Virus record (IMG/VR): IMGVR_UViG_3300043432_000485 | Coordinates: 128,001-192,000 of that record | Strand: one strand, 5' to 3' | From: a virus | Taxonomy: Duplodnaviria > Caudoviricetes | DNA: 64,000 nucleotides | In this document: positions 1,320 through 61,046 of the stretch, piece after piece | Position numbering within the stretch: position 1 is the stretch's first letter | How the letters are laid out: the number at the start of each line of letters is the position of its first letter | The notes under the pieces: generated by a model | Told to the model about the DNA's origin: nothing | The model's database searches: none | What the model saw: only the letters and a program-made list of their open reading frames with translations | Translations under genes and position numbers: made by a program

Positions 1320-2828
1320 TCACGGATGCAGGAATAGAGAAGGATTCTGCTTGATGAAGCGCTCAAGTGCGCGCCGAGCCCGAGGAGCTACACCAACCTC
1401 TTGGGTTCCCGATCTGTGGGAAAAAATATTCTCACGAAGAGCAAACCGGGCTGCAACCTTGAGTGCCAGCCTCATGACCTGCTTGCCGTAAAGGCCAGAC
1501 AAGGACAGGGCACGCTGCATACGAAACTTAGCGGTTGAGGTCAACTTCTCCGGGGCTCCCATGAACGCCACAAAAGACTCGGCAAAGTCCTCCTTCTCAT
1601 TCGTCATACCGTAGTCTGATACGATCTCAAGTTTGGCCATGGCCTCATCGACTGCCTTAGCAATCGCTGGGTCACTCTCTGACATCTCAGCTACTGTCTC
1701 TGACGGGACACCGTAATCCCCCGCCCAAGTCAGACCAAGCCTATCTGCTATTTGCTCAGCTTTTCGTGTCAAGCGCTCTTGAAAGTCCGGATCCGTTGTC
1801 TCCAACCGGAAGTTCTCTTTCATGTACCTCGCCGGATTGGATAGGAAGTCGAACACTGGCTTACCCTCCTTGGTAAGCTTCCATTGCTTAGCCGTGATCA
1901 ACGGGTTCCCCATCAAAGGGGATCTGAGCCATGCGCCGTATTTGACCTTGGCTGCTCCCTTCAACTTCTTGGCCACACGACCAATGTCCCAGTCGTTGTC
2001 CTTCAAGAGGTCGTAGAACTCCAAGCGTTCCGCATGAGTGATCTTGCCGAACAGGTCGTCCTTGATCTTTTTCTTCTCGTTGACCTCAGCCCAACCTTGA
2101 TCCCAAGCAGCTTTGGCATCGGGCGGAAGAAAATGAAGATGAACGTGATGCCCTACTTCGTGCAGGAACACCTCGTTGACCCACTTCATAAAGCGGCCCT
2201 TACCTGCGCCTGCAGCCTTGGCGGACATTTCGATCTCCCGGGCCGCAGGTATGTAATACCCGAAGGTAGTGAAGTTGCCTTGGCCTTCACCCAGAGCAGG
2301 CATCAGCCTGACTGTCGTAATGGTCTCCCTCAGGATAGGGGTCACTCCCCTTTTCTTGAACAGCGCCACCACATAGTCGACACCTTCTAGGAGCATGCGG
2401 CACTGGACTTCCCCCATGCGCTCTGGGTTTTCAATCTTGAACCCCTGGTAAGAAAAACGTGCTGGTGCGGAGCGGTCCAAAGCCCCCTGAATCTCGGCAG
2501 CATAGGCATCCAAAAGCTCAAAGAACTGAGACGGCTCCGCCTTGCCCTCAAGGACCTCCATGACCTTTCGGCCTGGTATCGATTGCATGCTAGGCATCTC
2601 GGACAAGTTGAAGCACTCGGTTAGCCATCTCTTGAAAGGGCCGTCCCATATCGGAGCCGTCCCATCGTGTCGAAACGCAAACCTCCCCAGCAGCTCTTCG
2701 AACTTCGCTATCTCTTTCTCGGAATCCGGGAGATTGTTCCGGAACTTCTGAGCCTCATCATATTTGCGCTGGAACTGCCTTACTGCATCCATCGCATCCT
2801 CAAAGAGACTGGTAGGCTTAGAAGTCAT
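1320..2828 (-). CDS. Putative zinc metallopeptidase (HExxH plus distal E), possible virion-carried protein
   Basis: FLHEVGHHVH at about 2148-2162 and downstream YGMTNEKEDFAESF, the usual third-ligand motif of lethal-factor/MtfA-like peptidases. Confidence 0.65.
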   Translation of the reverse strand: MTSKPTSLFEDAMDAVRQFQRKYDEAQKFRNNLPDSEKEIAKFEELLGRFAFRHDGTAPIWDGPFKRWLTECFNLSEMPSMQSIPGRKVMEVLEGKAEPSQFFELLDAYAAEIQGALDRSAPARFSYQGFKIENPERMGEVQCRMLLEGVDYVVALFKKRGVTPILRETITTVRLMPALGEGQGNFTTFGYYIPAAREIEMSAKAAGAGKGRFMKWVNEVFLHEVGHHVHLHFLPPDAKAAWDQGWAEVNEKKKIKDDLFGKITHAERLEFYDLLKDNDWDIGRVAKKLKGAAKVKYGAWLRSPLMGNPLITAKQWKLTKEGKPVFDFLSNPARYMKENFRLETTDPDFQERLTRKAEQIADRLGLTWAGDYGVPSETVAEMSESDPAIAKAVDEAMAKLEIVSDYGMTNEKEDFAESFVAFMGAPEKLTSTAKFRMQRALSLSGLYGKQVMRLALKVAARFALRENIFSHRSGTQEVGVAPRARRALERFIKQNPSLFLHP

Positions 2829-3633
2829 CGCTGTGGTCCTCTCCGGTGACCACTTGATTCACCTTGGTGCCAAGCCGATCTCTGTCTTTGATGCCCTGCC
2901 AGTAATGACGAAAGTCGTCATAGTGGTAGATGGACATCTTCCAACGCATGGCGTCCAGAATGCGTCCAATTGTGTCATTGGGGATGTAGGTATCCGTGAA
3001 GATGTACCGGATCCGGAACAGCGTGTGAGCTGGCCTGACCAGATCTAAGAGCTGCCTGATCGCAGAGTCCGCCTCGAAGATGTTTGGTGGGAACCCACCC
3101 CCGGGAGGAGCGATATAGTCGATGTTGAAGATGAATTCATCCGAGATGTCCAGCCCGCTCGCTCCCTGTCGGACGAGCAAGAAGTCCTCGGTCACCGTCA
3201 CGTTGCCGGAGAAAAAGAGGTCAACCACATCCTTCATCGACTGTGGCACTGAGCCCTGGAAGTAGATCCGAACCAGATTGAGGAAGAACTGACGAAACTC
3301 CTCATCCGAGAATCCAAGATCCGGGAGCTTGTTGTTGACCAGTACGAGGTACCCGACGATCGACCAGAGGAAATCGGATCTGGTGTGCTGGAAGTCACGA
3401 TCTCTATCCACGTCCTCCAAGGCAAGCTCAAGCCTGGACAGCTCCACCGCCACAGCCTTCAGAGCCTGGGTGTAGTTGGGGCCTTGAATCGCGCTAGAAT
3501 ACGAACTGGGTAGGAGATTGAGCAGGGTGGAGAAGATCGTCTGGGATCTCTGCATCAAGCGGAGGGAGTACTCCTTCCCGCGTTGTTCCACAGTGCTATT
3601 TAGCCTGTTTGAATCATAAACAAACCTAGCCAT
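2818..3633 (-). CDS. Baseplate wedge protein (P2 gpI / T4 gp7-like)
   Basis: Probable start MARFV at 3633, overlapping the upstream stop. Has LLDLVRPAHTLFRIRY, typical of gpI-like wedge proteins, and lies downstream of the gpJ-like gene. Confidence 0.6.
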   Translation of the reverse strand: MARFVYDSNRLNSTVEQRGKEYSLRLMQRSQTIFSTLLNLLPSSYSSAIQGPNYTQALKAVAVELSRLELALEDVDRDRDFQHTRSDFLWSIVGYLVLVNNKLPDLGFSDEEFRQFFLNLVRIYFQGSVPQSMKDVVDLFFSGNVTVTEDFLLVRQGASGLDISDEFIFNIDYIAPPGGGFPPNIFEADSAIRQLLDLVRPAHTLFRIRYIFTDTYIPNDTIGRILDAMRWKMSIYHYDDFRHYWQGIKDRDRLGTKVNQVVTGEDHSDDF

Positions 3634-4351
3634 TGGCCACCACCTTCCGTGGTCGGTTCTTTGCGGCCTCTGACATACGCTGGCGCGCTTCCGCACTCCG
3701 CTTAGCGCCTAGATGAATCTCAACCAACTTAGCCATGTGTTCTGCAGTATTGGTTCTTCTGCCCCTAAGGGCACTAGCGATTTTGGCCTTAGTTTTCTCT
3801 GGCATAGGCCCGTGAGAAATCTCTCTAGCAACTTCAGACAGACGCTGCTTGTGACTGTCGCTTAGGCTCCGGCCCGACAAAGAAGCAGAGAGCTTCTTCC
3901 TCTGCTCAATTGACATTGTTCGGCCGCTAAGTGCCTCGGACATCCTGGCCCGAGCCTCGGGCGTTCGCTCACGCCCTCGCTGCGCTTCGGAGATTTTTTT
4001 CTTTCCCTCAGCGCTGATTGTGACCCCCGGCAGCCCTCTTCGTCCCCCACCCGTGCCCCCGGGTGAGTGATTGGTCAGCCTGGCTCCGCGCTCACGCTCG
4101 GTAGCGATCATCTGTATTTCTAGGGCATCCAGCTCTTCTTCAGAGCCGGCTTCACGCAGAGGCTTAATCAAGGGGGCCAAGCCCTTGTTCTTCAACTCTC
4201 GCAGCCAGTGAGAGGCGTGCCGTTTCGCCTTTAGATTCACAGCGGCCATGTGACCACGCAAACGCACCTCAAGCGGGACTATGGTTTGTCCAATGTATCG
4301 CAACTCATCAGTTAGAGGGTCGTATAACCCATAGACTACGCCGTAAGCCAT
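3626..4351 (-). CDS. GIY-YIG homing endonuclease with NUMOD3 repeats
   Basis: VVYGLYDP...RYIGQT, R and E catalytic positions, LTNHSPGG, then repeated SxExKxKISxA units. Confidence 0.88.
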   Translation of the reverse strand: MAYGVVYGLYDPLTDELRYIGQTIVPLEVRLRGHMAAVNLKAKRHASHWLRELKNKGLAPLIKPLREAGSEEELDALEIQMIATERERGARLTNHSPGGTGGGRRGLPGVTISAEGKKKISEAQRGRERTPEARARMSEALSGRTMSIEQRKKLSASLSGRSLSDSHKQRLSEVAREISHGPMPEKTKAKIASALRGRRTNTAEHMAKLVEIHLGAKRSAEARQRMSEAAKNRPRKVVANG

Positions 4352-34895: not shown

Positions 34896-35606
34896 TCAGA
34901 CCGGGACGACCGTGTTGGAGTTGTTTGCGAAGCGAAGAGAGAAGCCTTTGCCAGGACCACCGTTGGCAGACACAGGAGCAAGGCCCGAGTCAATGAACTC
35001 GCCGTATTGCGATACACCATCGATGATGTCCGTGACGGTGACCGAGCTGGTCTCCGCTACGATAGCTGAGTCGCTGGCGTAGGAGGCTCCGTACTGGTTG
35101 AACCAGCAGCCCTCAAAGAAGGTCAGCAAGGCGCGGGGAACAACAATCGGGTTGTCAGCAGCCGTCGGACCCGTGGTCACGGTAGCGGTGACAGACGAGG
35201 TGTTGGGATCCTGCAAAGAGGTCAACTCCGAGAACACCAGCTCCTGCTTGATGTCGAAGGGCCAACGGTGGTGACGCAAGCTGCGCACCAAACCATCGAC
35301 ACCACCCTTGTAGCCAACGATCTGAAACAGGTTGGCATTGTAGAGCAGGGTCTTGTTCAGCGTCAAGGTCATAGCCTCAGTGACACCGGGCACCAGCTCA
35401 GCGATCTGATCGCCGTAACCAACGCCACGGATCGGGTCAACCGCACGACTCTCGTCATGGCTGAACTCGCTGATCACTCCGAGCTGTTGAAAGCCGCCTA
35501 CACCGACCGTGTAGCCGTAGATCTTGTTCTTCTGGGATACAGCAGCTCTCGTATTGGGAGCAGTTCCCATACGATAAATGTAGTTCGAAGTTGTCACGTT
35601 TGCCAT
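34896..35606 (-). CDS. Tail tube protein (contractile tail, gp19-like)
   Basis: IGVISEFSHDESR-type region, ELVPGVTEAMTLTLNKTLLY, PFDIKQELVFS and FEGCWF...YASDSAIVAETSSVTVTDI are typical myophage tube motifs. Confidence 0.8.
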   Translation of the reverse strand: MANVTTSNYIYRMGTAPNTRAAVSQKNKIYGYTVGVGGFQQLGVISEFSHDESRAVDPIRGVGYGDQIAELVPGVTEAMTLTLNKTLLYNANLFQIVGYKGGVDGLVRSLRHHRWPFDIKQELVFSELTSLQDPNTSSVTATVTTGPTAADNPIVVPRALLTFFEGCWFNQYGASYASDSAIVAETSSVTVTDIIDGVSQYGEFIDSGLAPVSANGGPGKGFSLRFANNSNTVVPV

Positions 35607-37074: not shown

Positions 37075-37464
37075 TCACCAGGTCACGAACCTACCGGCCT
37101 CGATGTCATCCTCATGGGTGTCATAGTCCTCCATGCAGTCCTCGATCCGGTCCTTCAAGTTGTCGCGCCAACCTTTGACGCGCTTGACCATGGGAGCTTT
37201 GCCAGGCTTGAGCTGCTTGCCCTTACGAAAGCTGTACAGCTGGACCTTGATGGGCGTCTCTCCAACGTCTTTGACAACCCCAGACCCGGCTGGGATGGAT
37301 GACCATACACGAACCCCTGTGGTGGGGCTGAGCCCCAAGTCGAACACGTAATTCCCCATCACCACCGTTTTCTTGGGGTGAAGGGCATAGAACGCCCTCT
37401 TGAGAAAGGTCTCCATCTCTTCCATGGTGACCTGCACATACTCGGCGGCGCGCTTATAGGTCAT
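37075..37464 (-). CDS. Hypothetical protein
   Basis: 129-aa ORF coupled to the helicase stop by an ATGA overlap. Confidence 0.65.
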   Translation of the reverse strand: MTYKRAAEYVQVTMEEMETFLKRAFYALHPKKTVVMGNYVFDLGLSPTTGVRVWSSIPAGSGVVKDVGETPIKVQLYSFRKGKQLKPGKAPMVKRVKGWRDNLKDRIEDCMEDYDTHEDDIEAGRFVTW

Positions 37465-42237: not shown

Positions 42238-42284
42238 TAGGCACGGAATAACAAAGCATCACCACAACGGTGTAGAGGACTTAC

Positions 42285-43139
42285 ATGGAACTCAACGTGC
42301 GCATTGAAAAAGCTCTGCCGGCTCTGGTCCCCGGGGCGATCAGCTTTGAAACCGGAGCGCGGTGCGCTGACCTCGATGCCCCAGACGTCTTCGCTTACGA
42401 GCACCATGGGGAAGAGTTCAGCCCGTCCGATCGCGGGGCCTTGCCTTGCTTCTTCGAGGACCTCCTCCTGGGCCGGCCGCTTCCGCTCACGTTCGCGACT
42501 CACAGCATCCAGGACATCGACACTCTGGTGGCCATTGCTGTCTTCCTACACCGAGATCTGGCCACCCATCCAGCCACACCCGAGCTGGTATACACTGCAG
42601 ACTTCGTACACCGCCTAGGGCTTCCTGCCTTGGCGCACATAGCGGAGGACAAGGCTCGGTTCCTGAGCGCTCTGAGGGGCTATTTCCCTGAGAAGGGACT
42701 GTCGCAACGCGAGCTGAGTGAACGCGTGGTAACTGCGGTTGGATGGGTCCGAGAATACCTCCAAGAGGGCCGGATTCCCGTGCTGGGTCCGGTACCACAG
42801 GCTGACATCAGGGTGCTGGATCATGGCACCTCGGGGTTCGTGGTGGCTGAAACGCCGGGCAACCTTTTGGACAGCTGGGTGGAACTCTTCCGGCTCGGGT
42901 TCTTGCGCGGCGTGCTGTTCGGGCACAGGGCCGGGGATCGCAAGGCTGTGTTGGTGGCGAGAAAGAGCCATTTTGTGGCGCTGGATTTGCCAGCCGCTGC
43001 GCGAGCGCTCAATCAACTGGAGGTCACCATGGGCGAGACGCCAGAATGGACCGTATCAAGGGACGGGCTCTGGCTAGAGCACCAAGCAGGTACCTTGCTG
43101 CTGCTGTCACAAGTCCTCGCGGTTCTGGTGCGAGCGTAG
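42285..43139 (+). CDS. Hypothetical protein, possibly a divergent DHH-like phosphoesterase; only convincing plus-strand gene
   Basis: GAGGA RBS; globular sequence with YEHH and THSIQDIDTLVAIAVF metal-ligand-like motifs. Confidence 0.6.
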   Translation: MELNVRIEKALPALVPGAISFETGARCADLDAPDVFAYEHHGEEFSPSDRGALPCFFEDLLLGRPLPLTFATHSIQDIDTLVAIAVFLHRDLATHPATPELVYTADFVHRLGLPALAHIAEDKARFLSALRGYFPEKGLSQRELSERVVTAVGWVREYLQEGRIPVLGPVPQADIRVLDHGTSGFVVAETPGNLLDSWVELFRLGFLRGVLFGHRAGDRKAVLVARKSHFVALDLPAAARALNQLEVTMGETPEWTVSRDGLWLEHQAGTLLLLSQVLAVLVRA

Positions 43140-43482
43140 ACTCGATCCTTCGCAACAACGCTACGTGGTCCCCGCTGAAATCGCAGCCGGACAGCACCGA
43201 ATTCTCGATTGCTTTCCGGACTTCACGGGCCGCATGAGGAGCCACCTCTGGGTCGTGCTTCAGGATGTAGCGCTGAGCCATGGGACCCTCGATCCAAACC
43301 ATGCAAAGGTCATGGAATAGCTCAAGTTCGTCCTCGCTGAGGGGCATGCGCTCGACCTCCGAGAAATCGCAGGCTGCGATCTCAATTAGGAGTTTGCGCA
43401 AGGACTTTAGCGGGTGAGCCCACCACGATTCGGCCAAGGACATGTGGCAGCAACTGGGCCACATGTGGGATTGGAGGCTCAT
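43024..43482 (-). CDS. Hypothetical protein (3' end overlaps the plus-strand gene)
   Basis: 152-aa helical ORF filling 43140-43482; start uncertain. Confidence 0.45.
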   Translation of the reverse strand: MSLQSHMWPSCCHMSLAESWWAHPLKSLRKLLIEIAACDFSEVERMPLSEDELELFHDLCMVWIEGPMAQRYILKHDPEVAPHAAREVRKAIENSVLSGCDFSGDHVALLRRIESTLAPEPRGLVTAAARYLLGALARARPLIRSILASRPW

Positions 43483-43547
43483 CCTGTTACTCTACCTAAC
43501 CCGGGGTGGAAAGTCTAGTCACCATACACCGGGCAATGAAACCACGA

Positions 43548-43601
43548 GCGTTATCAATACACAATGTTGACCCTGGTGGCAACTTAACGTATTGATAACG
43601 C
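43548..43601. repeat. Perfect 13-bp inverted repeat with a 28-nt spacer
   Basis: GCGTTATCAATAC at 43548-43560 and GTATTGATAACGC at 43589-43601, in an intergenic gap. Confidence 0.9.
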
Positions 43602-43604
43602 CTT

Positions 43605-45825: not shown

Positions 45826-48800
45826 CTAGACCCTTGCTCTTAAATTAAATGTCAAGAGCAGAAATTCCAATGGAAAGATGGGGCTGTAGAACATTTCGAA
45901 CCGCAGTACCGTGGGGTCCTGCTCGTCGATGGAGGCGGTCATGCCCTGGAAGGCGCCGACGATCTCGGCCTGAACCAGCGAGCGGAACAAGCCCGTCATG
46001 CTGACCACAACCTCGTTTGTGCGGCTCGCGAGGAACTTGGTTCCCACGAAGCTGTCCAAGATGGCACGGCTCTGTTGCTGCACGTGGTCCGCGATCTGGG
46101 TGACCGTGGGCAAGCGCGTCAGCACATTCGTCATGTTCGTGGTCAGACCGTGGCGGATGCGGATGATGGGATCCAGATCTTCGAGGATCGTGATACCGGC
46201 AACCGCAGTCTGGTTCGCCTCCACCGGGTCCATACGACGGGGGATTCTGGTGAAGCCCTGAATCCGGCGGCGCGTGTACGGGGTAGCGACGTCAACCGCG
46301 GGGCTGACCACCGCGCCAGCAACCGCAGCAGCGAAGAAGCTGCCATCGATGATGGCTTCAAAATTCTGACCAAGCTCATCCGTGAGGGTGACGATGGCCG
46401 AATCCGGGTAGTAGGCAACCATGCGGCTGGAGTTCAACCCGCGTGCCACCGTTTGAGCGGTGGTCGGGCTCGTGCCGGACGCGAAGCCGATGAAGCCCAT
46501 GCGCTCCGCCTGATTGCGGATGTTGCTCTGGGTCTCACAGTGCGACGTCAAGTGCGAGTACACCGAAGTGCTGGTGGCCAGCGGGACGATGATGTCCGGC
46601 TTGATGTTGCCCGGCAGAGGAACCGCTAGCTCGTCGATAGCCGCGTTGAACGACTGATCCGAAGCCTGGTTCGTGTTGGGAACCTTCAGAACCTGCTTGA
46701 TGATGATCAAGACAGCTCCGTTCAGGATCGACAGGTAACCAGCCAGCGTTACCCGATTCTCAGGAGAGGTCTTGCCGAAGTTGGCTTCGATCGTCTTGAG
46801 CTGCTGGTAAACCTGAGCCGAGAAGTCCTGCTTCCGGTAGAGGTAGCTGATGAAGTAGAAGTCGCCTACCGTCGGCTCCACGCCGCTCGGGTTGTAGGTG
46901 GTCAACGTGGCGGTGTCGTTTACTCCAACGCCAACCGTGTTGGACACCAACAGTTCGAGCCCGCCGATCGAGTACCGAGGCACTGACGGGGACACGTGGA
47001 AGGTAGGTGAAACCTCCAGCGTGAAGTTACCAGCCGAGTACGAACCCGTGCTGGCCGGCAATACAGTGAAGCGCAGGCCGGTGCGGCTATCCGTGTAGGT
47101 CTGGCCCGGGATACCCGAACCTGAGGACCCAACCGGAGACGTGCTGGACACCGTGTAGCTGTTCTGAGCGTCTTCTCCGTTATCCCCGTCCACGCCCGTC
47201 GTAACGTTCGTTCCCGTGGTCGGGTTGAACGCCGAGTTCGCAGAGGCGACAAAGGCGATGCTACTCGTCGCGGCACCGGTGGTCAGAGACTCGAAGGTGA
47301 CATAGTCCTGTCCACCGAGCGAGTCCACATAGGCAACCGCCGTGGTCAGGAACGAAGCAGTAGACAGCAAGCTGTCGACAACCTCTTGCGCCGTAACCAA
47401 GGTCTGACTGGCGAAGTCGTTCTGGTTGAAACCAAGGACCGCATTGGCGGAACCCGAGTTGATCAGAATGGACGAACCGGAGTCGTTGGTGGTGCTCGTC
47501 AGACGAACGTGGTTCAGGTTCACCCCTGTGCCAGCCGACGCAACCGAGCTACCAATCACCGTGTTGATGTCCGTGACAACCGTAGCGGCCGTCACTGCAG
47601 GACCAGCGGTCAAAGTCACGCTGTAGTCCACGCCATTCACGCGAACGTTGAATGCGTCATTCAGGCCAGCGGTGATGTTGAACGGACCCGCCAACGAACC
47701 CAGCATGGTGGCCGGCTTGTTGATGGACCCCGTGGTGCCATCGGCACTCTGGAAGGTCTTGAATCCGAGCACGGTCTCGACAGTACCCTGCTCGACCGTG
47801 ACGTTCGACACGTCGTCGAATCCGCCGGGTAGAGCGCCAGGCACTACCGCACCCTGGACGATGAAGAACACGTCTCCACCAGCGATCTGCTTGAAGCTGG
47901 CGGTACCATTGACACCCAACGCCGTGTTGATGTCCGAAACGATCTGCGTAGGCGTACGAGAGCCGGACGTGATGGTGACAGGGTATGCCACGCCATCAAC
48001 CAAGAGGTTCAGCACGTTGCCTGGAGAGGCGGGGATCGTGATGTTACCACCACTCAAGGTCACGTGTCCGCTGACCAAGAAGGCAGCTGCGGCAGAGGCC
48101 AGGTTGGTGACACGGTTGGTGCCATTGACCTTCGTGGTCCACGTTGCAGAGAACGGGCTGTAGAACGAGTAAGGGGCAGCGCCCTTGATCGTGTAAGCCG
48201 CGTTCGTTGCACCAGTGGTGCCAAAGGTTACGGTCACAATCTCGGCAGCGGGGGTACCGTTACCAGTGTGGAATGCGTCGGGGATCTGCTCCACGCCGCG
48301 GGGCCACTGAATGATCTCACTGACCGTCTTGGAGCCGAACTTGACTTCGTAGAGGTTGGCGTCACGCGTGGAGCTGAACACCGTGTACTGACCAACGCCA
48401 ACGGGACCCGCCACCGTGTTGGTGATGATGTAGGTGTCGTCAGCCAAACGGCTGTAGTAGAACGTTGCGTACGCGTTGTAGTCAGGCGGCTGGGCCGTCT
48501 TGAGAACGATGCGACGATTCACACCATCCACAACCGTGACAGGAACCGCCGGGCGGTTCAAAGCATCGCGCAGCGTGCGGCCAGTGTAAACTTTCACCAG
48601 GTCCGGGCGGTTTGTGGCCAAGTCCTGCCGGCTGTTGGCAACCGAGTTGAACGTCGACAGTCCGAGCGTGGTGCTACGGCCGTTACCAGTGGTCGGAATC
48701 TCCGGCAACAGGTAATCGGTAGGTGACACGGTGGCCGGGATGGTGCTCGTGTTCGTGACCCGCGTGCACAGGCCAAGGAACATCTGGTCGTCCAGGAGGG

Positions 48801-50061
48801 TTCCGACGATCTGACCACCGGAGCCGGTGGAACCATCGAACGGGGTGGCACCCGGGCTGGTAGAAGAGGCAGCGACCTGGAAGCTGGAGCCCCAGTTGAT
48901 CACCGACACATCGTTGGTCGGATTGGCGACCACGAAGTCTGAGCCCTGGATGTAATCGTTACGTCCCGGAGAGATGCCGCAGCGCAGAACCGTAGTGACC
49001 TGACTGTTGGGCAGGTAATCAAACGTATCCTGCCACGTGTTGGCCCAGTACTGAATCGTTACCGTGGAGCCAGGGGCCGGAGCAAAGGGCAGCGTAACGG
49101 TACCATTGGCGCCGTCAACAGCTTCCGCAACAACCTGAGTACCATCAACCTTGGCCACAACCTTTGTGGGATCCGTGGTTGTGGTTCCGCCGCCGGTACC
49201 ATCAACGATGGGGCGCTGAAACACACGGAACTGACGGGTACGCGCCGAAGCTGCGCCTGCAGTGAATCCGAGAGGTCCGTTAGCCGTTCCTTCACCGATC
49301 GTGAGGCCAAGCGTGGTGGTCAGCTGAAGGTGATCCAGATTCTGGTTGTCCGTGAATACGGAGGCCACCAGGTTAGGCACCAACGCGGCATTGATCGTGG
49401 ACGCCACCGTAGCGGCAGCCAGAGAACCAGCCGGAAGAATCATTGAGGCGACTACGCCGTTCACATTCACGATGAACTGGTCGTTGACCCCAGCAGTGAT
49501 GGAGAACGGAGCGAATCCTGGGGAAACCAAGACGGCGTTCGTGGTGGTAACCTGATCCGACACATCATCCGTGAAAGACGTGTCACCACGGTGGAAGAAA
49601 TACGTGGCGCGAACAACATCGTTGGGCTGCGTCGGAACCTGTAGGGTGACAACACCCTTAGCTCCCTGAACCGAACCCAAGGACACGGCCAGGCCGTTCA
49701 CAGTGACCTGCAGGCTGCGCACGTCATTGGTGGTGCGGCCGATTCCCTGACCGTCTACGATCGGGTAGTTGCGAACACGGAAGGACGTCAAGGTCCCGTC
49801 CTGAGTTCCCAGGATGAGGTTGTTGGGGTTGGCCGAGTTGACCACCCAGCTGGCGGATACATCCTCGTTGACGATCTGCTGATCGACAGTAGCCGAAGAA
49901 CCGCGCACGATCTCGAAATCGGACTGCTCCAGCTCCTCTTGGCCGACGCCAATCAAAGCGGGGATTCGAAGACCCGCCACCAAGTTGGAGGCATTGGTAT
50001 CCGTAAGCGTCCTAGTGTATACCCCAGGAGGAGAATATGAGAGAAAAGGCCCCAAACTCAT
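45826..50061 (-). CDS. Contractile tail sheath protein, unusually large (1411 aa)
   Basis: N-terminal YSPPGVYTRT; C-terminal sheath core (ERMGFIG, AGAVVSP, AGITILE, IRHGLTT, LRFEMFYSPIFPLEFLLLTF); AGGAG RBS. Confidence 0.92.
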   Translation of the reverse strand: MSLGPFLSYSPPGVYTRTLTDTNASNLVAGLRIPALIGVGQEELEQSDFEIVRGSSATVDQQIVNEDVSASWVVNSANPNNLILGTQDGTLTSFRVRNYPIVDGQGIGRTTNDVRSLQVTVNGLAVSLGSVQGAKGVVTLQVPTQPNDVVRATYFFHRGDTSFTDDVSDQVTTTNAVLVSPGFAPFSITAGVNDQFIVNVNGVVASMILPAGSLAAATVASTINAALVPNLVASVFTDNQNLDHLQLTTTLGLTIGEGTANGPLGFTAGAASARTRQFRVFQRPIVDGTGGGTTTTDPTKVVAKVDGTQVVAEAVDGANGTVTLPFAPAPGSTVTIQYWANTWQDTFDYLPNSQVTTVLRCGISPGRNDYIQGSDFVVANPTNDVSVINWGSSFQVAASSTSPGATPFDGSTGSGGQIVGTLLDDQMFLGLCTRVTNTSTIPATVSPTDYLLPEIPTTGNGRSTTLGLSTFNSVANSRQDLATNRPDLVKVYTGRTLRDALNRPAVPVTVVDGVNRRIVLKTAQPPDYNAYATFYYSRLADDTYIITNTVAGPVGVGQYTVFSSTRDANLYEVKFGSKTVSEIIQWPRGVEQIPDAFHTGNGTPAAEIVTVTFGTTGATNAAYTIKGAAPYSFYSPFSATWTTKVNGTNRVTNLASAAAAFLVSGHVTLSGGNITIPASPGNVLNLLVDGVAYPVTITSGSRTPTQIVSDINTALGVNGTASFKQIAGGDVFFIVQGAVVPGALPGGFDDVSNVTVEQGTVETVLGFKTFQSADGTTGSINKPATMLGSLAGPFNITAGLNDAFNVRVNGVDYSVTLTAGPAVTAATVVTDINTVIGSSVASAGTGVNLNHVRLTSTTNDSGSSILINSGSANAVLGFNQNDFASQTLVTAQEVVDSLLSTASFLTTAVAYVDSLGGQDYVTFESLTTGAATSSIAFVASANSAFNPTTGTNVTTGVDGDNGEDAQNSYTVSSTSPVGSSGSGIPGQTYTDSRTGLRFTVLPASTGSYSAGNFTLEVSPTFHVSPSVPRYSIGGLELLVSNTVGVGVNDTATLTTYNPSGVEPTVGDFYFISYLYRKQDFSAQVYQQLKTIEANFGKTSPENRVTLAGYLSILNGAVLIIIKQVLKVPNTNQASDQSFNAAIDELAVPLPGNIKPDIIVPLATSTSVYSHLTSHCETQSNIRNQAERMGFIGFASGTSPTTAQTVARGLNSSRMVAYYPDSAIVTLTDELGQNFEAIIDGSFFAAAVAGAVVSPAVDVATPYTRRRIQGFTRIPRRMDPVEANQTAVAGITILEDLDPIIRIRHGLTTNMTNVLTRLPTVTQIADHVQQQSRAILDSFVGTKFLASRTNEVVVSMTGLFRSLVQAEIVGAFQGMTASIDEQDPTVLRFEMFYSPIFPLEFLLLTFNLRARV

Positions 50062-51002: not shown

Positions 51003-52199
51003 TTACAGAATCCTCTCGAAGTCGTTGCTGCGCCCGGCTATGACGGGCATCGTGGAGAGCACCAGCTTGTTCTGAACGTCCCCTATGATGGTGGACTCGT
51101 TGAACCGATCCAGCACTTTGGAACTCGCGTCCGTGGCCGGTGTAGTGTCTGTCACCCTTGTGATGGTCAGCGGGAGAGGGAAGTGAATTTCCCAGCGAGT
51201 TTGGATCTGAACCGAGGTAGAGATTGTGTACGTGTAGTCATCCGAGGTTTCATCGTATGTCTCCTCGGCCTCCCCTCCTATCGAGACGTCAGTGATCTCT
51301 ATGCCCTCTGAGGACAACCTACTTCTCTTGACCGCAATCAAGTACATGAAGATTAGGTCAGCCAGCTCCTCGCTCTGCACCGAATCCCTGGAGATGGCGT
51401 CCAGCTCGAAGGTCACGTCAAATAGCCCCCCGAAAGCCTCCGCCACTACCACTCGATCCTCATAGACAACGATCGCTACCTTGTCCCCTACCTTACCCCG
51501 TTTGCCGAAGGCCAAAACCACTCCGGGCAACGTTGAAAAGTCCGCCTTGTTCCACTGGTATGAAATTGGACCGACCGACGGTACTGCATAGCGGTAGTCA
51601 GCCGTCACCGTGGACCCAGGATTGGATCTGTCAAGAAATAGAATCGCCCCCGTTTGGTAGTCCACCGTGTAGTGGGTGCCTTCCTGGAGAGGGAAACGGC
51701 GGTTCTCCCATAGGCGTAAAGTTCCCTGCACAGGGACCCGTTGAAGCTGGCCCTCAGTCTCTACCCCAGAGACGAAGCGCAGCACCGGCTCTCCATTGAC
51801 CGTAAGCAATGGATCCAAGATGTACTGACCCTCTGATTGTGCGTCCTCAGGGACTGACAGGATCTCCAGGTAGTAGATTCCTGGTGGAGTTGGCATCACA
51901 TCCCCATTGGCCTTGATACAGGCCACGTCCTCCCGAATCCATTCCAAGGGGAATACCGGGGCACCCACGTAAGCCAACATCACGTGGCTCTCTACTGCAC
52001 CAAGAAAGTTGTCGGCCGACAGCTGCGCTTTGTTGCCGCTACTCCCCTTGACGACGATCCCCATTTGGGGGCGCTCGTCAAAAGCGAAACGATTCTGGAT
52101 GAAGGGCACGATCTTATCGTAGATCGGGTGCTCCGAGAATGAGTCCTTGAGTTCAAGGATCAACCTCCGCTTCATGGATGAGATCAGGTTGAAGTACAT
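51003..52199 (-). CDS. Tail terminator / tail completion protein
   Basis: Upstream of the sheath gene; C-terminal DVTFELDAISRDSVQSEELADLIFMYL...SIGGEAEE fits a gp15/gpU-like fold. Confidence 0.55.
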   Translation of the reverse strand: MYFNLISSMKRRLILELKDSFSEHPIYDKIVPFIQNRFAFDERPQMGIVVKGSSGNKAQLSADNFLGAVESHVMLAYVGAPVFPLEWIREDVACIKANGDVMPTPPGIYYLEILSVPEDAQSEGQYILDPLLTVNGEPVLRFVSGVETEGQLQRVPVQGTLRLWENRRFPLQEGTHYTVDYQTGAILFLDRSNPGSTVTADYRYAVPSVGPISYQWNKADFSTLPGVVLAFGKRGKVGDKVAIVVYEDRVVVAEAFGGLFDVTFELDAISRDSVQSEELADLIFMYLIAVKRSRLSSEGIEITDVSIGGEAEETYDETSDDYTYTISTSVQIQTRWEIHFPLPLTITRVTDTTPATDASSKVLDRFNESTIIGDVQNKLVLSTMPVIAGRSNDFERIL

Positions 52200-53231
52200 T
52201 TAGCCGGAGTGCTCCTCGGTGGCCAGCACCAAGAGCCCCTCAGCCACCGCTGTCATCGGGTCCTTGGCCATCCTAATTTCGCTGATCTGGATGGGGAAAC
52301 CCTTCTTCTTGACAGCCTCAAACTCCTCATTGAAGACCTGCATGAACCCAGTGGCTCGGCTTGTCCCTCCAGACACCACAAACGGGATCGGCTCAGGAAG
52401 GTCCATCCCAGCGGACACCTTCTTGAACTGAATCGCGATGTTCTCCAGCACGTACTTGATGAGAGCCCGAATGTACATCGCTAGGGCCTCCTCATCTCTA
52501 CTCTTGGGTGCTGCGAGGTCCACGCCCTTCTCCTTGATCGAGCACATGCGCGCAGCCGTTGATCCGGTTGCCTTAGCGGCATGTTGATCAATCCAGTCAC
52601 CCCCGCGGGCCACTGAGAAGTCCATACCCTTTACGGTTTGGTACGCGAGAGCGATGTTACCCATACCGGAGCCGAAGCTCACCGAGAGCCCGGAGAAGTT
52701 GTCTTGAGCGCACTGACTGTAGATGATGGCCATGGCCTCATTCATCGGGTGCGGGGTGTAACCAAGCTCCACCAGGATCTTCTTGAAGACCTCTTGGTGG
52801 TAGATGATGTCCTGGTGCTCATCGTCCACAGGGGCGGCCGGCACGCTGTAGTAGCAATGCTCTTTTGGTGCCACCGGTGTACCCACCACATTGGCGATCA
52901 ACAGGCTCAGGATCTGCTGGGCATCCAACTCACCGGCCGAGATCACACCGCGGCTCAAAGGCCGGCGCACCTCCCGCTTGAACAGATTGGCCATCGTGAG
53001 AGCGGAATCCCCCAGTACGATTAGAGAGCCATCCTTCTCTACGTAGTCTACTTTGGACAACCGGAGCGTCTTCTTGACCTCCAGGTCCAGGTCCAAGAAC
53101 GCATCACGGATGCGCTTGGTCTCCACTTGATCCCCGGAGCCCGTTTGCCGAGCAGATACCAAGTTCATGGTGCCGATGTCCAGCCCGCATCCGGGCTTGT
53201 ATTCTGATTTTGCCATCTGATTTTTCTCCAT
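52200..53231 (-). CDS. Actin-fold ATPase (MreB/ParM/FtsA-like)
   Basis: Phosphate-1 GLDIGTMN, connect-1 MNEAMA, phosphate-2 VSFGSGMGN, RGGDWID, adenosine VVSGGTS and connect-2 DPMTAVAEG; probable start 53216. Confidence 0.85.
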   Translation of the reverse strand: MEKNQMAKSEYKPGCGLDIGTMNLVSARQTGSGDQVETKRIRDAFLDLDLEVKKTLRLSKVDYVEKDGSLIVLGDSALTMANLFKREVRRPLSRGVISAGELDAQQILSLLIANVVGTPVAPKEHCYYSVPAAPVDDEHQDIIYHQEVFKKILVELGYTPHPMNEAMAIIYSQCAQDNFSGLSVSFGSGMGNIALAYQTVKGMDFSVARGGDWIDQHAAKATGSTAARMCSIKEKGVDLAAPKSRDEEALAMYIRALIKYVLENIAIQFKKVSAGMDLPEPIPFVVSGGTSRATGFMQVFNEEFEAVKKKGFPIQISEIRMAKDPMTAVAEGLLVLATEEHSG

Positions 53232-53903: not shown

Positions 53904-54203
53904 TCAGTCGTTTTCGAAGGGATTCACGAACGCAGCGACCTTGGGGGCAGCGGCCTCAGCCTTGGCGTCTTCCTTCATCTCCTGGCCCACCTGAGCAGGA
54001 GTGTGGCGCTTGGGCTTGGCGGTGAACACTTTGCCCGTGTAGGGGGAGCGAATCGAAACCTTCTTCTCTTCCAAGTAGAAGTTGTGCCCTTCCGGGTCCT
54101 CGTACTTCCAGAGAACGGGGGCGGCTGCCTCTTTGGCCTGACCGCTGATACGAGCCGAAACCTCTTTGGCTTGGGCCAGAACGCTAGCTTGACGTGGGTG
54201 CAT
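53904..54203 (-). CDS. Small hypothetical protein
   Basis: Probable start MHPRQAS at 54203 behind an AAGGAG RBS. Confidence 0.65.
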   Translation of the reverse strand: MHPRQASVLAQAKEVSARISGQAKEAAAPVLWKYEDPEGHNFYLEEKKVSIRSPYTGKVFTAKPKRHTPAQVGQEMKEDAKAEAAAPKVAAFVNPFEND

Positions 54204-54256
54204 GGATGGACTCCTTTTCAACGGTAGCAACTCTAAGCAAGCTTTATTGAAACGGG

Positions 54257-54877: not shown

Positions 54878-55413
54878 TTCTTCTTCAACGATGCCTTGAT
54901 TTGCTTCTTCAGCTCCTTGGCGAACTTGTCCTTCAGGAACTCTCTCGATTCTGCTTTAGCCACATCCACGAAGTTGGATGGCTTTCGGCCCGGGTGAACC
55001 CAGCCCTTCTTACCCTCACGCGGACCGCCTCCTGCACGACGCATGGATCGGGCGGTGGCGTTCCGGAAGATGAGCTTGCCCGTGTCCGTGATGATGGGGA
55101 TCGGAGTCTTGGACTTCACCAGCCACTTCATCTGCTGCCTGTTTTGACCGTGAACCAATGGCCCAAAGGCCGGGTGGTCCACAGTCACCAAAAGGCTGGC
55201 CGGCTTGATCTCGATCGCCATCGCTTTGGCTAACGCCTTCTTGGCTCTCTTGGAGAATGCCTCAGGGGTTAGCTTGGCCTTGAGTCTGCGCAACAGGTCC
55301 GCCCGTGACTTGGCCAACGCGTCCTTGATCTGCGCGTCCGTAGCCGAAAACGAATCAGACGTAGGGAGTAAACCCCGTAGGTGCATACGGGTGGCTATGA
55401 ACTTGACTGCCAT
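54874..55413 (-). CDS. Putative neck/tail-completion protein (HK97 gp10-like)
   Basis: Basic protein ending WVHPGRKPSNFVDVAKAESREFL; position between neck and terminator genes. Confidence 0.45.
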   Translation of the reverse strand: MAVKFIATRMHLRGLLPTSDSFSATDAQIKDALAKSRADLLRRLKAKLTPEAFSKRAKKALAKAMAIEIKPASLLVTVDHPAFGPLVHGQNRQQMKWLVKSKTPIPIITDTGKLIFRNATARSMRRAGGGPREGKKGWVHPGRKPSNFVDVAKAESREFLKDKFAKELKKQIKASLKKK

Positions 55414-56774
55414 CAGTACTCAGTGTTCTCCCAGACCTTGGAGCGCCCGCGCAGTTCCCGCTCATCAGGGATGTTTGGTTTGCCAGTGATGCTGGCATCA
55501 GCCTCGCTCTCCGGACCGCGAGGGGAGAACTGCACGGCCGAGTACTTCACAGGATTGCCAACCGGCACCTTGTAGCGGATATCCTTCTCGTCCAGATGGC
55601 CGATGTTGAAATGCTGCTGCAAGACCATGCCTCGATTGGAGGGGAATCGCACCGGACCCACCGAGTACCGCTCTCCGTTGATCTTAACCAAGAAGTCGCG
55701 CTGAGACAGGATTGGAGAAGGGCCGGTCCAGACTTCGTATGCGTGCTCCAGCGTCCTGCCGACGTCCTTCTGAGCAATACGCCTCTCAGCGTCATCGGGA
55801 GCGATCAGCACGTCATACGGACCTTCGAACCCTCCTAGGATCCCGGTCCCGTAGCACTTCAAGCAGTCGTTGAGGGGCTGCTTGTGAGTGTCATCCGGGA
55901 AGCACGAGCAGGGTACTCCAACGAGCTTGCGGATGAACACCTTTACGCGCTCTCCGCCTTGCTCAAGAATGAACCGGTTGCGGCGCACGCCCTCACGCCA
56001 GATGTAGTCGATCTTCTCGACTTCCATCGAGCTGGTTGCAGTCGCGTTCTCAAGCGGGGTCTCGATCAGATCCTGGCACTGCACCTTACTGAGGTCACAC
56101 CCGACGCGTACCCCCACCGATGTAATGCGGTAGAAAACCCTCTGCCCAAGATCGGTTTTGAGCAGGCTCCTGTTACGCCGGTACGTGCACGTCACTCGGC
56201 TGTTGGGGCCTGGCACCAACGATGGATCAAACTTCTGCCGCGTCACGTCCGCGTAGATGTACGGATTGATCTCCACTTCCCCTGAGAACCCATGGACCGC
56301 AAGAGGACGTACTGTCACACCGTCAATCTGGACCCTCACGTCATCCGGGGAGTCCGTGGTGACCGCTTGCGACCCCTCTTTGATGATGGGGCTGTGAAGC
56401 GTCTTGAACACCCATCTGGGACCAGCTTCGCTAGAGCCTGAGCACTCCCCATCAAGCACGAACTTGTCCGGAGTGATCTCCTCTTCGATGATCAGCTCAT
56501 TGTCTGTCTGGTCCCTCCAGAAATTGGAGCAGACGAGCAGTTCCGAGATGCGATTGAATGGACCGAACTCCGAATCGAAGGATCGGTACACGTTGACCCC
56601 CAGCAGCTGGTACGTGCTGTTGAGAGGCAGGGTGGTGGGATCATCCCATCGAAGATCGAAAACACCCGGGGTGTACCCGCTCGTCAGGAACAAGTTCAGC
56701 GGAGGCAACGGCCAAGGGGTCTTGGTGTACTCCAGCTCGCTGATGTTCCAGTCTCTTTGAGATGAGTAAGCCAC
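55413..56774 (-). CDS. Neck / head-closure protein with Zn-finger motif
   Basis: ILEQGGERVKVF...CSC...CLKCYGTGILGGF, resembling large-myophage neck proteins; N-terminal FN3-like domain. Confidence 0.6.
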   Translation of the reverse strand: MAYSSQRDWNISELEYTKTPWPLPPLNLFLTSGYTPGVFDLRWDDPTTLPLNSTYQLLGVNVYRSFDSEFGPFNRISELLVCSNFWRDQTDNELIIEEEITPDKFVLDGECSGSSEAGPRWVFKTLHSPIIKEGSQAVTTDSPDDVRVQIDGVTVRPLAVHGFSGEVEINPYIYADVTRQKFDPSLVPGPNSRVTCTYRRNRSLLKTDLGQRVFYRITSVGVRVGCDLSKVQCQDLIETPLENATATSSMEVEKIDYIWREGVRRNRFILEQGGERVKVFIRKLVGVPCSCFPDDTHKQPLNDCLKCYGTGILGGFEGPYDVLIAPDDAERRIAQKDVGRTLEHAYEVWTGPSPILSQRDFLVKINGERYSVGPVRFPSNRGMVLQQHFNIGHLDEKDIRYKVPVGNPVKYSAVQFSPRGPESEADASITGKPNIPDERELRGRSKVWENTEY

Positions 56775-58775: not shown

Positions 58776-59588
58776 TCAGACCAATCCCTCTTCGGAAAAC
58801 GCACTGTAAACCGCGGAAAGGATCACATTTCGATTGCGCGCGGTCAGATTCTTTTCGATCAGCTTCCACGTGGTGGACATCCTCAGAGACATGTCGATCA
58901 GCTTCCGCGGGTTGCCCCGGAAGTGCTCCTGAAGCTTGGTGCCACTTCCGACCGTTTCATCGACAATCTGCTGCATGAAGGCCTTGACCTCTGCCGGGTC
59001 ATTTACGTACTTGCCCTGGTCCTTGACCTTCTTGTTCTCGTCATATTCGTACTGGAGCTTCTTGCGGAACATGGACTCAGCCACGTGTGTGGTCTCATGG
59101 ATCAGAATCGAGTAGAGCCCGTAAGGCACACAGGCTTCAGAAGTGCACCCACCAAGAGGCTGAAAGCGATCCGTAACGTATTTGGAAAGGTCTCGATTCT
59201 CCCCGTTGGTAGCCAGATACTCGTTCGGGGATAGGCCGCCATTCAACCAGAGGGTCACCTGAGCGTGCGCTTCCCCTTCTTCGAACTTCCTCTTCCCGGC
59301 CCCTCCGCCCAGCACAGGGAATGCCTTTCCTGTGGCTGGAATGGACACCACCTCTACATCAATCCGAATCTGCTCAGACCGGTCAACCGAATCAACGTAG
59401 AAGGATCCCTCAGCCAGTGCAGAGTTGTTGCTGCTGCCAATGGGCTTGTCCGGGTGGGGGTGGTGCTTGAGCCAGCTCTTCAACTGAGGGACCAATGTCC
59501 CTTCGACAAGTCGACGAATCACCGCCTTGTCGATGTGGATAGGGCGCGCGGTCAGGAATCGCCGCAAAACTGTGGCGGCGGTGGTCAT
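58776..59588 (-). CDS. Putative HExxH metallopeptidase
   Basis: ILIHETTHVAE followed by YVNDPAEVKAF. Confidence 0.55.
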   Translation of the reverse strand: MTTAATVLRRFLTARPIHIDKAVIRRLVEGTLVPQLKSWLKHHPHPDKPIGSSNNSALAEGSFYVDSVDRSEQIRIDVEVVSIPATGKAFPVLGGGAGKRKFEEGEAHAQVTLWLNGGLSPNEYLATNGENRDLSKYVTDRFQPLGGCTSEACVPYGLYSILIHETTHVAESMFRKKLQYEYDENKKVKDQGKYVNDPAEVKAFMQQIVDETVGSGTKLQEHFRGNPRKLIDMSLRMSTTWKLIEKNLTARNRNVILSAVYSAFSEEGLV

Positions 59589-60508
59589 CAGAACCCGATG
59601 AACTTCTGAGGGGACAACACACCACGTCCAGAGAACGGTCCGAAGGCGGAGCGAATACCCATTCCAAAGCGCGGTTGCTGCAAGCCTCGAATGACGTTGA
59701 CCGTGGCCTTTGCCTTCTCCATCTGCTTGTCAAACTGATCAGCGGCAGCCTGATAGGCACCCTCATACTTGCTGGATTTCTCCAAGTTCAAGGACACGCC
59801 ACCGATCGAGTAGTCGAATTCCTCCGCAACCCAGTTGATCCGGAGCGCCTGAAGAGCGAACGTCATCGCCCCAGTGAGCAAAAGAGTTCTCCACTCTGGC
59901 CGGAACGCCACCATTTGATCCACTGACGCAAAAGGCGTACGGGGTGGGGCAGCTGAGATCATGTCAAGGGATCGCAGGATGTACTCTTGCAGCTCAACGT
60001 CCTCCCAGATGTACCCAAATACTCGGTTGAACTGCTGAACGGTCTCCTCGTGGCTGGGCGGACGAAAGTGGTAGTTTCGATCTGGGTTGTTATCGCGCAG
60101 TAGCATGCGCAGTCGTCCCATCAAATCCAATACCACAGTGCTCGCGTTCAAAGCGCTGCCTGTGATCATGCTAGCGCTAGCTGTGGAGAGCCCTGCCTTG
60201 TCAGTTACCTCGAACTCTTGCACCACCTGCTGAATCGAGCCGCCTACGATTTCTCGGAACGTCCACCGAACTCGGTAAGACCCAAGATTGGCATCAAGGG
60301 GGACCACGATCGAGGCGTAGTACTCACCCACGGAAGGGTTGGCAGGTGTGCGTAGCGGAACTCCCACCAAGGCTTCTTGTCCCGTCGTGAAGTCGTAGAG
60401 AGCGTACGAGATCTCTGCAGCGTTGACAGGAGTGCTGGCAGCGTTGACCAGAAATATGTTCAGGTCGTTACGCCCCAGTTGCTGGCCTCGGTAGAACGTT
60501 GTGCCCAT
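59588..60508 (-). CDS. Head-tail adaptor protein with N-terminal Ig-like domain
   Basis: RLRMLLRD...WEDVEL...LLTGAMTFAL...FDYSIGGVSL, a gp13/gp15-like adaptor pattern. Confidence 0.6.
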   Translation of the reverse strand: MGTTFYRGQQLGRNDLNIFLVNAASTPVNAAEISYALYDFTTGQEALVGVPLRTPANPSVGEYYASIVVPLDANLGSYRVRWTFREIVGGSIQQVVQEFEVTDKAGLSTASASMITGSALNASTVVLDLMGRLRMLLRDNNPDRNYHFRPPSHEETVQQFNRVFGYIWEDVELQEYILRSLDMISAAPPRTPFASVDQMVAFRPEWRTLLLTGAMTFALQALRINWVAEEFDYSIGGVSLNLEKSSKYEGAYQAAADQFDKQMEKAKATVNVIRGLQQPRFGMGIRSAFGPFSGRGVLSPQKFIGF

Positions 60509-60509
60509 G

Positions 60510-60791
60510 TTACAGGTCCTTTACAAACCTATCCACCACTCGCTCGGGGATCAACGCCTCGGCGGTTCGATACAGGGGGCTCACCATCTTCCCGTCCCAG
60601 CTGACCATGCCCATGTTCTTCAGGCTATCGATCAGCATTTCCAGGGACCCGTGATCCCACCCATGGAAGTCGGGCAGCTTTGACAAGGTGCGCAGGGTGG
60701 CTGGTTTCTTGAGCCGATGCAAGTGACGTAACAGCGTAGATTCGCCTGGAGACAAAGCTTCTAGTTCCTTCTGTGCGAGTTTGGATTTCAT
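60510..60791 (-). CDS. Small winged-helix-like protein
   Basis: ESTLLRHLHRLKKPATLRTLSKL...LEMLIDSLKNMGMVSWDG fits a wHTH pattern. Confidence 0.5.
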   Translation of the reverse strand: MKSKLAQKELEALSPGESTLLRHLHRLKKPATLRTLSKLPDFHGWDHGSLEMLIDSLKNMGMVSWDGKMVSPLYRTAEALIPERVVDRFVKDL

Positions 60792-60797
60792 GGCCGG

Positions 60798-61046
60798 TCA
60801 TCCCCGAGAACCGGAGTGACGCTTCGCGAACTTGTTGGCCACGGACTCCACCACAATAGCACGCGCGAACTCGTCTGCGGCGCTCTTCTCTTTGTAGTGA
60901 GGGTGTGCCCCTTTGCCCTTTTCCCACCAAGCGAGAGCCCACGGATTGTCGATCTCCGGGTGTTCCTTCATCTTTTCTACAGTCTTTTTCCACCCTGGGG
61001 GTGACACTGCCTCGTGAGACTCTGATGCTTTTTCCTGTTCACTCAT
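60798..61046 (-). CDS. Small hypothetical protein
   Basis: Probable start MSEQEK at 61046 (ATGA overlap); PPGW...IDNPWALAWW. Confidence 0.6.
   Translation of the reverse strand: MSEQEKASESHEAVSPPGWKKTVEKMKEHPEIDNPWALAWWEKGKGAHPHYKEKSAADEFARAIVVESVANKFAKRHSGSRG

Follow-up and report, generated by a model that had tools for sequence, protein, structure and literature searches.

A stretch of viral DNA in the IMG/VR record IMGVR_UViG_3300043432_000485 (Duplodnaviria; Caudoviricetes) encodes several unrelated accessory proteins that share one short peptide tag. The whole stretch analyzed, hereafter the window, spans 64,000 nucleotides (bases 128,001-192,000 of a viral contig of 203,362 bp). The full tag is 12 residues long, L-A-x-R-V-A-x-R-[F/Y]-L-x-A, and is almost certainly real. 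In this uncultivated huge phage, about a dozen proteins bear it at one end. It is clade-specific among related phages, and it both co-occurs and co-localizes with a distinct clade of phage-encoded ClpX. The N-domain of this ClpX is the most likely reader of the tag, with a probability of about one half as judged from sequence. In bacteria, it is textbook knowledge that AAA+ unfoldases read short labels at protein ends. A virus encoding its own altered ClpX together with proteome-wide matching labels on anti-defense, DNA-modifying and protein-modifying enzymes is not described in the literature searched, and the search found no description of this tag family either. The initial annotation of the window had proposed a terminal V-x-x-[RK]-F peptide as a candidate signal for virion loading or proteolytic processing. 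A portable label on unrelated accessory proteins held up in the present analysis, but head packaging and protease maturation gained no specific support.

Sequence statistics consistently set the tag apart from background. Among 148 distinct copies in the logo, residue identity is 94% for V, 97% for R and 95% for F/Y. The flanks are unconserved, with information content at background outside positions -4 to +7. A tag profile (position-specific scoring matrix) trained on other phages only was compared with shuffled proteomes. The 203-kb genome contains six matches of at least 14 bits versus 0.03 in shuffled proteomes, and 11 versus 1.2 at a threshold of at least 10 bits, confirming enrichment over a shuffled background. 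Matches of at least 12 bits number 34 versus 4.4 in 80 related loci anchored on the head-tail connector gene and 19 versus 1.6 in the relative G011. The complete relative G001 has 14 matches of at least 14 bits versus 0.25. Across six independent data sets, the profile separates real from shuffled or reversed proteomes 10- to 200-fold. The proposed terminal bias is also evident in homologues. Among 154 tag copies, 61 are N-terminal, 49 C-terminal and 44 internal (about 29%), and 110 lie at most 12 residues from a protein end. In the connector-anchored loci, 21 of the 34 matches fall within 10 residues of an end, where 9% of positions are located. The shorter pattern V..[RK]F within 12 residues of a protein end occurs eight times genome-wide versus 1.8 expected. 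Five of these lie outside the window versus 1.3 expected, which constitutes an independent replication of the hypothesis formed on the window. In terminal enrichment, V..RF ranks sixth of 13,200 comparable patterns, after start-methionine artefacts and CxxC zinc knuckles; given so many patterns, this rank taken alone is no more than suggestive. Elsewhere in the genome, other unrelated proteins have tag words at their very ends (MNVVTALKVAARFL…, …KTASERVAARFLVP and …KTASERVTNRFVGAAVAARFIEGS). For binding work, the tag can be represented by the peptide DPLALRVAARYLAA.

The tag behaves as expected of a module that moves between proteins. BLAST among tagged proteins detected no paralogues of one another, in agreement with the earlier claim of one shared peptide on unrelated proteins. 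Orthologues bear the tag at the N-terminus, at the C-terminus or at a domain junction, and the tag is thus a portable module. Carriers are variable accessory genes, often located in the slot just upstream of the connector. Core structural families of the tail and neck are free of the tag (0 tagged among 27-66 members each), including the connector family (0 of 64 members), which bears out the earlier remark on core tail proteins.

In the window, all strings quoted by the initial annotation are found at their places in the sequence. Three of the four main instances, KVAARF, TVLRRF and RVVDRF, are solid, but the fourth, SVANKF, is weak on its own. The first carrier is a 502-residue HExxH protein ("metallopeptidase 1") encoded by the open reading frame (ORF) 1320..2828 on the minus strand. 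The tag copy LALKVAARFALR occupies residues 454-465 (1434..1469, minus strand; 22.0 bits), with KVAARF at residues 457-462, 40 residues before the C-terminus. Among homologues, 68 of 95 have LAxRVAxR[FY]. Its distance is 5-10 residues to the N-terminus or about 5 to the C-terminus, unless it lies where another domain, for example topoisomerase IB, is fused. Up to three copies occur per protein, and the family also includes SprT/Mx-type fusions. The 502-residue protein itself runs 38 residues beyond the tag (1320-1433), and close homologues end about six residues after the motif. A degenerate second copy in this tail, RRALERFIKQ, scores 0.8 bits.

Three further tagged-family members cluster around the connector gene, all on the minus strand. 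The 270-residue protein ("metallopeptidase 2"; 58776..59588) has an invariant motif, H164-E165-x-x-H168, and 16 homologues. Its tag copy TAATVLRRFLTA covers residues 3-14 (59547..59582; 13.9 bits), with TVLRRF at residues 6-11. In the alignment of orthologues, the tag is N-terminal in some and sits on an appended C-terminal tail in others. The label of metallopeptidase derives solely from the HExxH motifs in both proteins; there was no significant Pfam match, only a sub-threshold peptidase PHROG match for the 502-residue protein and no match in a fold search of the 270-residue model against the PDB. The 93-residue protein (60510..60791) had been labeled a winged helix-turn-helix, and a fold search agrees. 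Foldseek top matches of the model are uniformly MarR, ArsR and Z-alpha winged helices (probability 0.9-1.0, E about 0.03-0.1). The tag copy LIPERVVDRFVK covers residues 81-92 (60516..60551; 16.5 bits). Homologues at 28-49% identity all retain [ES][RK]VAxR[FY] beyond a gapped linker, and one has two copies. The 82-residue protein (60798..61046) contains the weak and degenerate copy VVESVANKFAKR (60819..60854), which at 4.3 bits is within noise alone. We count it as a tag because its family is tagged in relatives, where three of four homologues have strong tags of 15.9-28.8 bits. A possible further carrier (62700..63029, minus strand) has VLMVASRFLNAA near the N-terminus if translation starts at 62960 (11.6 bits; start codon uncertain), though the hydrophobic context of this sequence could instead indicate a membrane segment.

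Structure predictions suggest that the tag is a short appended helix separated by a linker from a well-folded core. In AlphaFold 2 models, the cores of the 270-residue and the 93-residue proteins reach a predicted local distance difference test score (pLDDT) of about 90. The tag helix of the former (residues 3-12) has a pLDDT of about 48 and is followed by an unstructured linker at residues 13-20. The tag helix of the latter (residues 83-92) has a pLDDT of 38-44. The helical state of the tag is thus predicted at low confidence (pLDDT 38-48).

Several of the weaker signals listed originally were not retained. TAAARY (43024..43482) scores 2.2 bits, and the ORF is doubtful because it is overlapped by a better-scoring ORF on the plus strand. 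KVAAF (53904..54230) scores -5.1 bits, with 0 of 24 homologues tagged. A [KR]-x-A unit had been noted near many protein ends or domain boundaries, but it is not enriched at termini (83 versus 70 +/- 8). The helicase, the Dps-like protein and the proteins at 36452 and 37075, which had been listed with this unit, have no tag. A [KR][TS]A unit flanks about 12% of true tags versus about 1% expected.

Tagged proteins amount to about 10-25 unrelated accessory proteins per genome. Pfam searches on 63 tagged proteins recovered SWIM fingers (4), topoisomerase IB (2), SAM lyase, DUF5662 and LPD1. The tag of the SAM lyase is inside a 40-residue N-terminal extension. In G001, an 899-residue orphan protein encoded directly downstream of the portal gene (L117:11503-14202) has an internal tag at residue 625, GGRTARSRVASRYL. 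No family match was found for this protein, and its position recalls minor head proteins of the MuF/gp7 type.

The tag has a restricted distribution among related phages. We compared tag pattern matches with control matches in 30 related records and confirmed the census at the protein level for G011, G019, G020 and G025. Tag-rich genomes include G001 (25 versus 2 control matches), G011 (23 versus 6) and G015 (18 versus 4). The complete genomes G019 (2 versus 2), G020 (4 versus 9) and G025 (6 versus 5) show no excess, and the cultured relative, Tunturiibacter phage Tunturi_5, has no tag (3 versus 5). A phyletic screen identified 26 genes of G001 that are common to the tag-rich G011 and absent from three tag-free genomes. 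Two candidates for a reader encoded in a tag-rich island are present in the same 18 of the 30 records. These are a Cdc48-like AAA+ ATPase and a 423-residue ClpX that is flanked on both sides by tagged genes. Head genes do not follow this distribution. The major capsid protein (MCP; 74-83% identity), the portal, the protease with its extension, an actin-like gene and a decoration-like gene are all present in tag-free relatives.

Other candidate readers were rejected. Full alignments show the C-terminal extension of the protease also in G020, G019 and G025, which are tag-free. The actin-like protein (52200..53231) has counterparts at 51-53% identity in tag-free genomes. Its gene is located beside the tail terminator, and conservation extends to 51 of 80 related loci. 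The Dps-like protein was dismissed because it has no tag. Mimicry of a scaffold was also discarded, with two scaffold candidates of G001 (399 and 212 residues) and the protease showing no tag-like end. In the HK97-type MCP of G001 (L117:5834-6712), the internal sequence H-D-L-R-V-A-R-I-Y is invariant and similar to the tag (8.3 bits), with the register off by one residue. This likeness is probably a coincidence.

The phage ClpX (423 residues; positions 81809..83080 of the genome) is encoded 46 kb upstream of the window. The protein matches the zinc-binding domain zf-C4_ClpX (PF06689; 1.7e-12), AAA_2 (PF07724; 4e-27) and the small AAA+ domain PF10431, and aligns with E. coli ClpX over residues 8-404 at E = 2e-106. 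Four cysteines, the GYVG pore loop and an [IMLV]-G-F-G loop are invariant among 14 phage sequences, with MGF corresponding to the IGF-like ClpP-docking loop. By architecture, the protein is a full-length ClpX whose recognition elements are altered. The tag-associated N-domain has the signature C-x-F-C-x-R-P-R-N-E-V-K, and the bacterial L-I-A-G-P-x-V-x-I-C segment is lost with variable sequence in its place. The RKH loop is not retained in the phage ClpX, where E. coli GGRKHPQQ aligns to GSRAVSGM. In E. coli, the RKH loop helps ClpX to read the ssrA tag. ClpP is absent from the phage and also from the complete G001, and host ClpP would thus be the partner unless ClpX acts alone. In the relative G017, the clpX frame (L217:8835-11177) is 780 residues long, with about 350 extra residues between the zinc-binding domain and the AAA+ module that may represent an intein or an inserted domain.

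Tag and phage ClpX are associated both across genomes and along the genome. The 18 records with a phage ClpX contain 235 pattern matches versus 80 control matches, and the 12 records without contain 50 versus 46. ClpX is present in all seven tag-excess genomes that are at least 86% complete, and the ClpX zinc finger is absent from all four tag-free complete genomes (G019, G020, G025 and Tunturi_5). Across 19 ClpX neighborhoods, we found 31 tags versus 0.8 expected. The immediate neighbor of ClpX is tagged in 11 of 18 genomes compared to a baseline of 8-10% (binomial P about 5e-8, with lineages not fully independent), and these tagged neighbors belong to different families. An alignment-based scan of viral contigs recovered ClpX loci where a single-sequence scan had found none. 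At least 534 viral contigs bear a ClpX. Eight phage-type ClpX loci on previously unseen contigs replicated the association with 15 tags versus 0.0 expected. In contrast, 61 loci with a bacterial-type ClpX yielded a single tag in 1.1 Mb.

We suggest that the tag, presented on a flexible linker, docks on the zinc-binding N-domain of the phage ClpX. The docking mode would be that of the C-terminal XB peptide (…PALRVVK) of the adaptor SspB, which tethers cargo to E. coli ClpX. Direct binding to the ClpX N-domain is known for XB (RGGRPALRVVK), and the same domain recognizes substrates such as lambda O and MuA (PMC3983244, PMC8808172). ClpX can read motifs located at the N- or the C-terminus (PMC3983244, PMC8808172). 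Tagged proteins might be handed to the phage ClpX together with host ClpP via the retained ClpP-docking loop. They could be substrates for timed removal or remodeling, or adaptors bringing bound targets. We infer both the binding of the tag to the N-domain and the later fate of the tagged protein. An overview of jumbo phages from 2021 mentions that some encode ClpX and that phage ClpX might serve as a translocase or assembly aid (PMC7824862).

The resemblance to the XB peptide is partial. The central A-L-R-V-V of XB scores +13 bits on the tag profile and fits the most conserved left half of the tag. Both are short peptides at a protein end attached by a flexible linker, and they have the core A-L-R-V-[V/A] in common. 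A ClpX with a zinc-binding N-domain is encoded beside tagged genes, and more than one copy per carrier occurs. Unlike XB, the tag is longer, and its invariant R-[F/Y]-L is absent from XB. The tag is found on 10-25 unrelated proteins per genome rather than on one adaptor, in N-terminal, C-terminal or domain-junction positions. The presumed reader would be a phage ClpX with the N-domain signature RPRNEV and without LIAGPxVxIC. The tag can also be compared to ClpX degradation signals, of which the cited account lists C-motif 1 (ssrA), C-motif 2 (MuA) and N-terminal motifs (Flynn et al., as cited in PMC3983244). In these signals, too, a single AAA+ unfoldase reads peptides located at one or the other end of unrelated proteins. 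However, the tag has no similarity to LAA or RRKKAI, and about 29% of its copies are internal.

A number of observations weigh against ClpX as the reader. XB matches half the tag only, the seven shared columns reach 4.2 bits (top 0.19% of 7-mers) and the invariant R-[F/Y] is missing. XB is bound in the form of an extended strand, in contrast to the helix modeled at low confidence for the tag. Phylogeny confounds the phyletic signal, given that the genomes without a tag are also those most distantly related (connector identity 50-57%). The presence-absence pattern of ClpX recurs in about 26 genes, identically so in the Cdc48-like AAA+ ATPase. Bacillus phage G encodes a ClpX and has no tag excess; its N-domain is of bacterial type, however. 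Many tagged genes are far from clpX, and the carriers in the window are located about 100 kb away in the late structural operon beside the connector gene. The clpX flanks of G011 and G005 hold no tag. The link between the tag and ClpX is correlative.

The tag could alternatively be a head-loading signal similar to a capsid-targeting sequence. It would then bind the capsid interior, the scaffold or a portal-associated protein, and the tagged enzymes would be packaged and injected with the DNA. We consider this possible though unlikely. Tagged genes in the window flank the connector in the late structural operon, and relatives have differing small tagged ORFs immediately upstream of the connector. 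Several tagged genes of G001 are inside the head module, including the 899-residue protein, which occupies a MuF/gp7-type place by position only. Multiple copies per protein would suit a repetitive lattice. The carriers also resemble the repertoire of "polyvalent" proteins with LPD1, Zn-peptidases, topoisomerase IB and an anti-restriction SAM lyase (PMC5512222). The best case for head loading lies in this repertoire, combined with the location of some carrier genes in the head and neck modules. Polyvalent proteins are thought to travel with phage DNA and include fusions to MuF or portal domains (PMC5512222). Both systems have Zn-peptidases, LPD1 and DNA-acting enzymes encoded near virion genes as cargo. 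In the polyvalent fusions, though, the address is a whole fused structural domain with enzymes in one giant polypeptide, whereas the tag system has separate enzymes each with a 12-residue label.

Comparisons to known loading signals and the distribution of head genes point away from head loading. The T4 capsid-targeting sequence of internal proteins and Alt is also one short peptide on unrelated accessory proteins of a large phage, and some tag carrier genes are among head and neck genes. The T4 sequence is strictly N-terminal and is removed by the prohead protease at a conserved site. The tag differs in being at either end or internal and in having no conserved adjacent cleavage motif. The same lack of a cleavage motif disfavors the protease maturation proposed originally. 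Encapsulin cargo-loading peptides are short terminal peptides on unrelated cargo too, and an HK97-fold shell protein, present in these phages, would be the reader. There is no sequence similarity to the tag, however, and the MCP occurs equally in tag-free relatives. No head gene tracks the tag, as the MCP, portal, protease and decoration-like genes of tag-free relatives illustrate, and the scaffold candidates and the protease are without a tag. Approximately one half of the tagged genes are found away from structural regions, and the strongest positional association of the tag is with clpX. Among cultured relatives with virion proteomics, none has homologues of the tagged peptidase. Searches of 20 kb by megablast and of the tagged peptidase by tblastn against cultured phages likewise gave no match. 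A complex prediction between tail residues 58-93 of the 93-residue protein and the HK97-fold MCP of G001 returned a score of 0.00, which in the absence of controls counts neither for nor against. Head loading is compatible with the ClpX link because ClpX could in principle be the loader.

A broader interpretation would make tag and ClpX parts of a phage addressing system. A ClpX with a rebuilt N-domain would read a label on 10-25 accessory proteins in one of two ways. The labeled proteins could act as an adaptor library that sends selected host proteins to host ClpP to be destroyed. Alternatively, ClpX could unfold labeled enzymes and thread them into the procapsid for injection. The latter would unite the head-loading idea of the initial annotation with the ClpX link. 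We regard such a system as quite unlikely at present. If the link between tag and ClpX holds, the label would provide a handle on dozens of orphan proteins of huge phages by marking those of one common fate. Protein turnover or delivery during infection would then seem to have an additional layer controlled by the phage. A compact orthogonal tag-and-reader pair would also become available for protein engineering, and a vague "address label" would become a specific binding question.

The reader might be another clade-specific hub rather than ClpX. The leading candidate is the Cdc48/p97-like AAA+ ATPase (positions 90141..91757 of the genome), although any of the approximately 26 co-distributed genes left by the phyletic screen could be considered. 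The ATPase and ClpX occur in an identical set of 18 of the 30 records, with the ATPase gene always within a few kb of clpX. The ATPase has a single ring. Substrates or adaptors usually bind members of this family at the N-domain, which here comprises 280 residues of unknown fold. However, tagged genes in the 19 neighborhoods abut clpX and not the gene of the ATPase (by inspection, with no formal count). There is also no sequence precedent comparable to XB. We thus consider a different hub improbable.

The tag might also act with no single protein reader as a generic amphipathic helix for membrane targeting or as a self-associating sticker. One face of the peptide is hydrophobic (L, V, F/Y, L, A) and has two arginines along an edge, which would fit such a role, and some proteins have two or three copies. 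Residue identity among the 148 copies is far too specific for a generic helix, though, and several copies have low mean hydrophobicity, making this explanation very improbable. Chance recurrence of a low-information motif, favored by helical periodicity, is effectively refuted: V-x-x-[RK]-F alone is weak, with about 0.6 of 13,200 patterns expected to reach its P value at random and an about 2-fold internal enrichment, but the extended profile sets real proteomes apart in all six data sets, the motif is kept in homologues at 28-49% identity while adjacent linkers vary, and the sister genomes G019, G020 and G025 show no excess.

The genomic context of the tagged genes in the window is a neck and tail module, as shown by comparison with Tunturi_5. 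Almost all genes are on the minus strand. The gene set stems from hybrid calling, which was adopted after codon-usage callers dropped real genes. The head-tail connector (59588..60508, minus strand) is an untagged core gene between tagged genes and has 29% identity over its full length to Tunturi_5 gp319, a "head-tail connector protein". The same comparison identified a "minor tail" gene (55413..56774), the tail terminator (51003..52199), the tail sheath (45826..50061) and the tail tube (34896..35606). Sheath identity is 38% with an uncultured phage of 485 kb and 33% with Tunturi_5. According to CheckV, the 203-kb record is about 43% complete, and neither MCP nor protease nor portal turned up when this partial record was searched with PHROGs, Pfam, PDB sequences and a protein atlas. 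The 203-kb fragment lacks the head genes, which in complete relatives are located 30-50 kb upstream of the connector.

Insertions of homing endonuclease and helicase genes interrupt the module. Endonuclease VII/HNH genes and a helicase of 1148 residues (35618-36430, 37461-40907 and 44317-45753) break the sheath-tube-chaperone order known from Tunturi_5. The helicase and a small gene at 37075..37464 are among the genes confined to tag-positive relatives. The plus-strand ORF that overlaps 43024..43482 encodes 284 residues (42285..43139, in the region 42237-44317) and has a good coding score among minus-strand genes. A 272-residue protein (61798-62616) has an N-terminus of 87 residues that is 30% identical to the connector protein, and it is found in tag-rich relatives and absent from three tag-free genomes. 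Outside the window, a second possible C-terminal motif consists of L-W-[EK]-x-L-R followed by acidic or basic residues. Its instances SLWEQLRDDI, GLWKMLREEGDDEVD and SVWKRLRRALKRK come from genome positions 22672..23154 (L002:4672-5154), 38206..38841 (L003:2206-2841) and 17137..17313. The related pattern W..[FL]R is the other non-trivial pattern enriched at protein termini, with six occurrences versus 0.6 expected.

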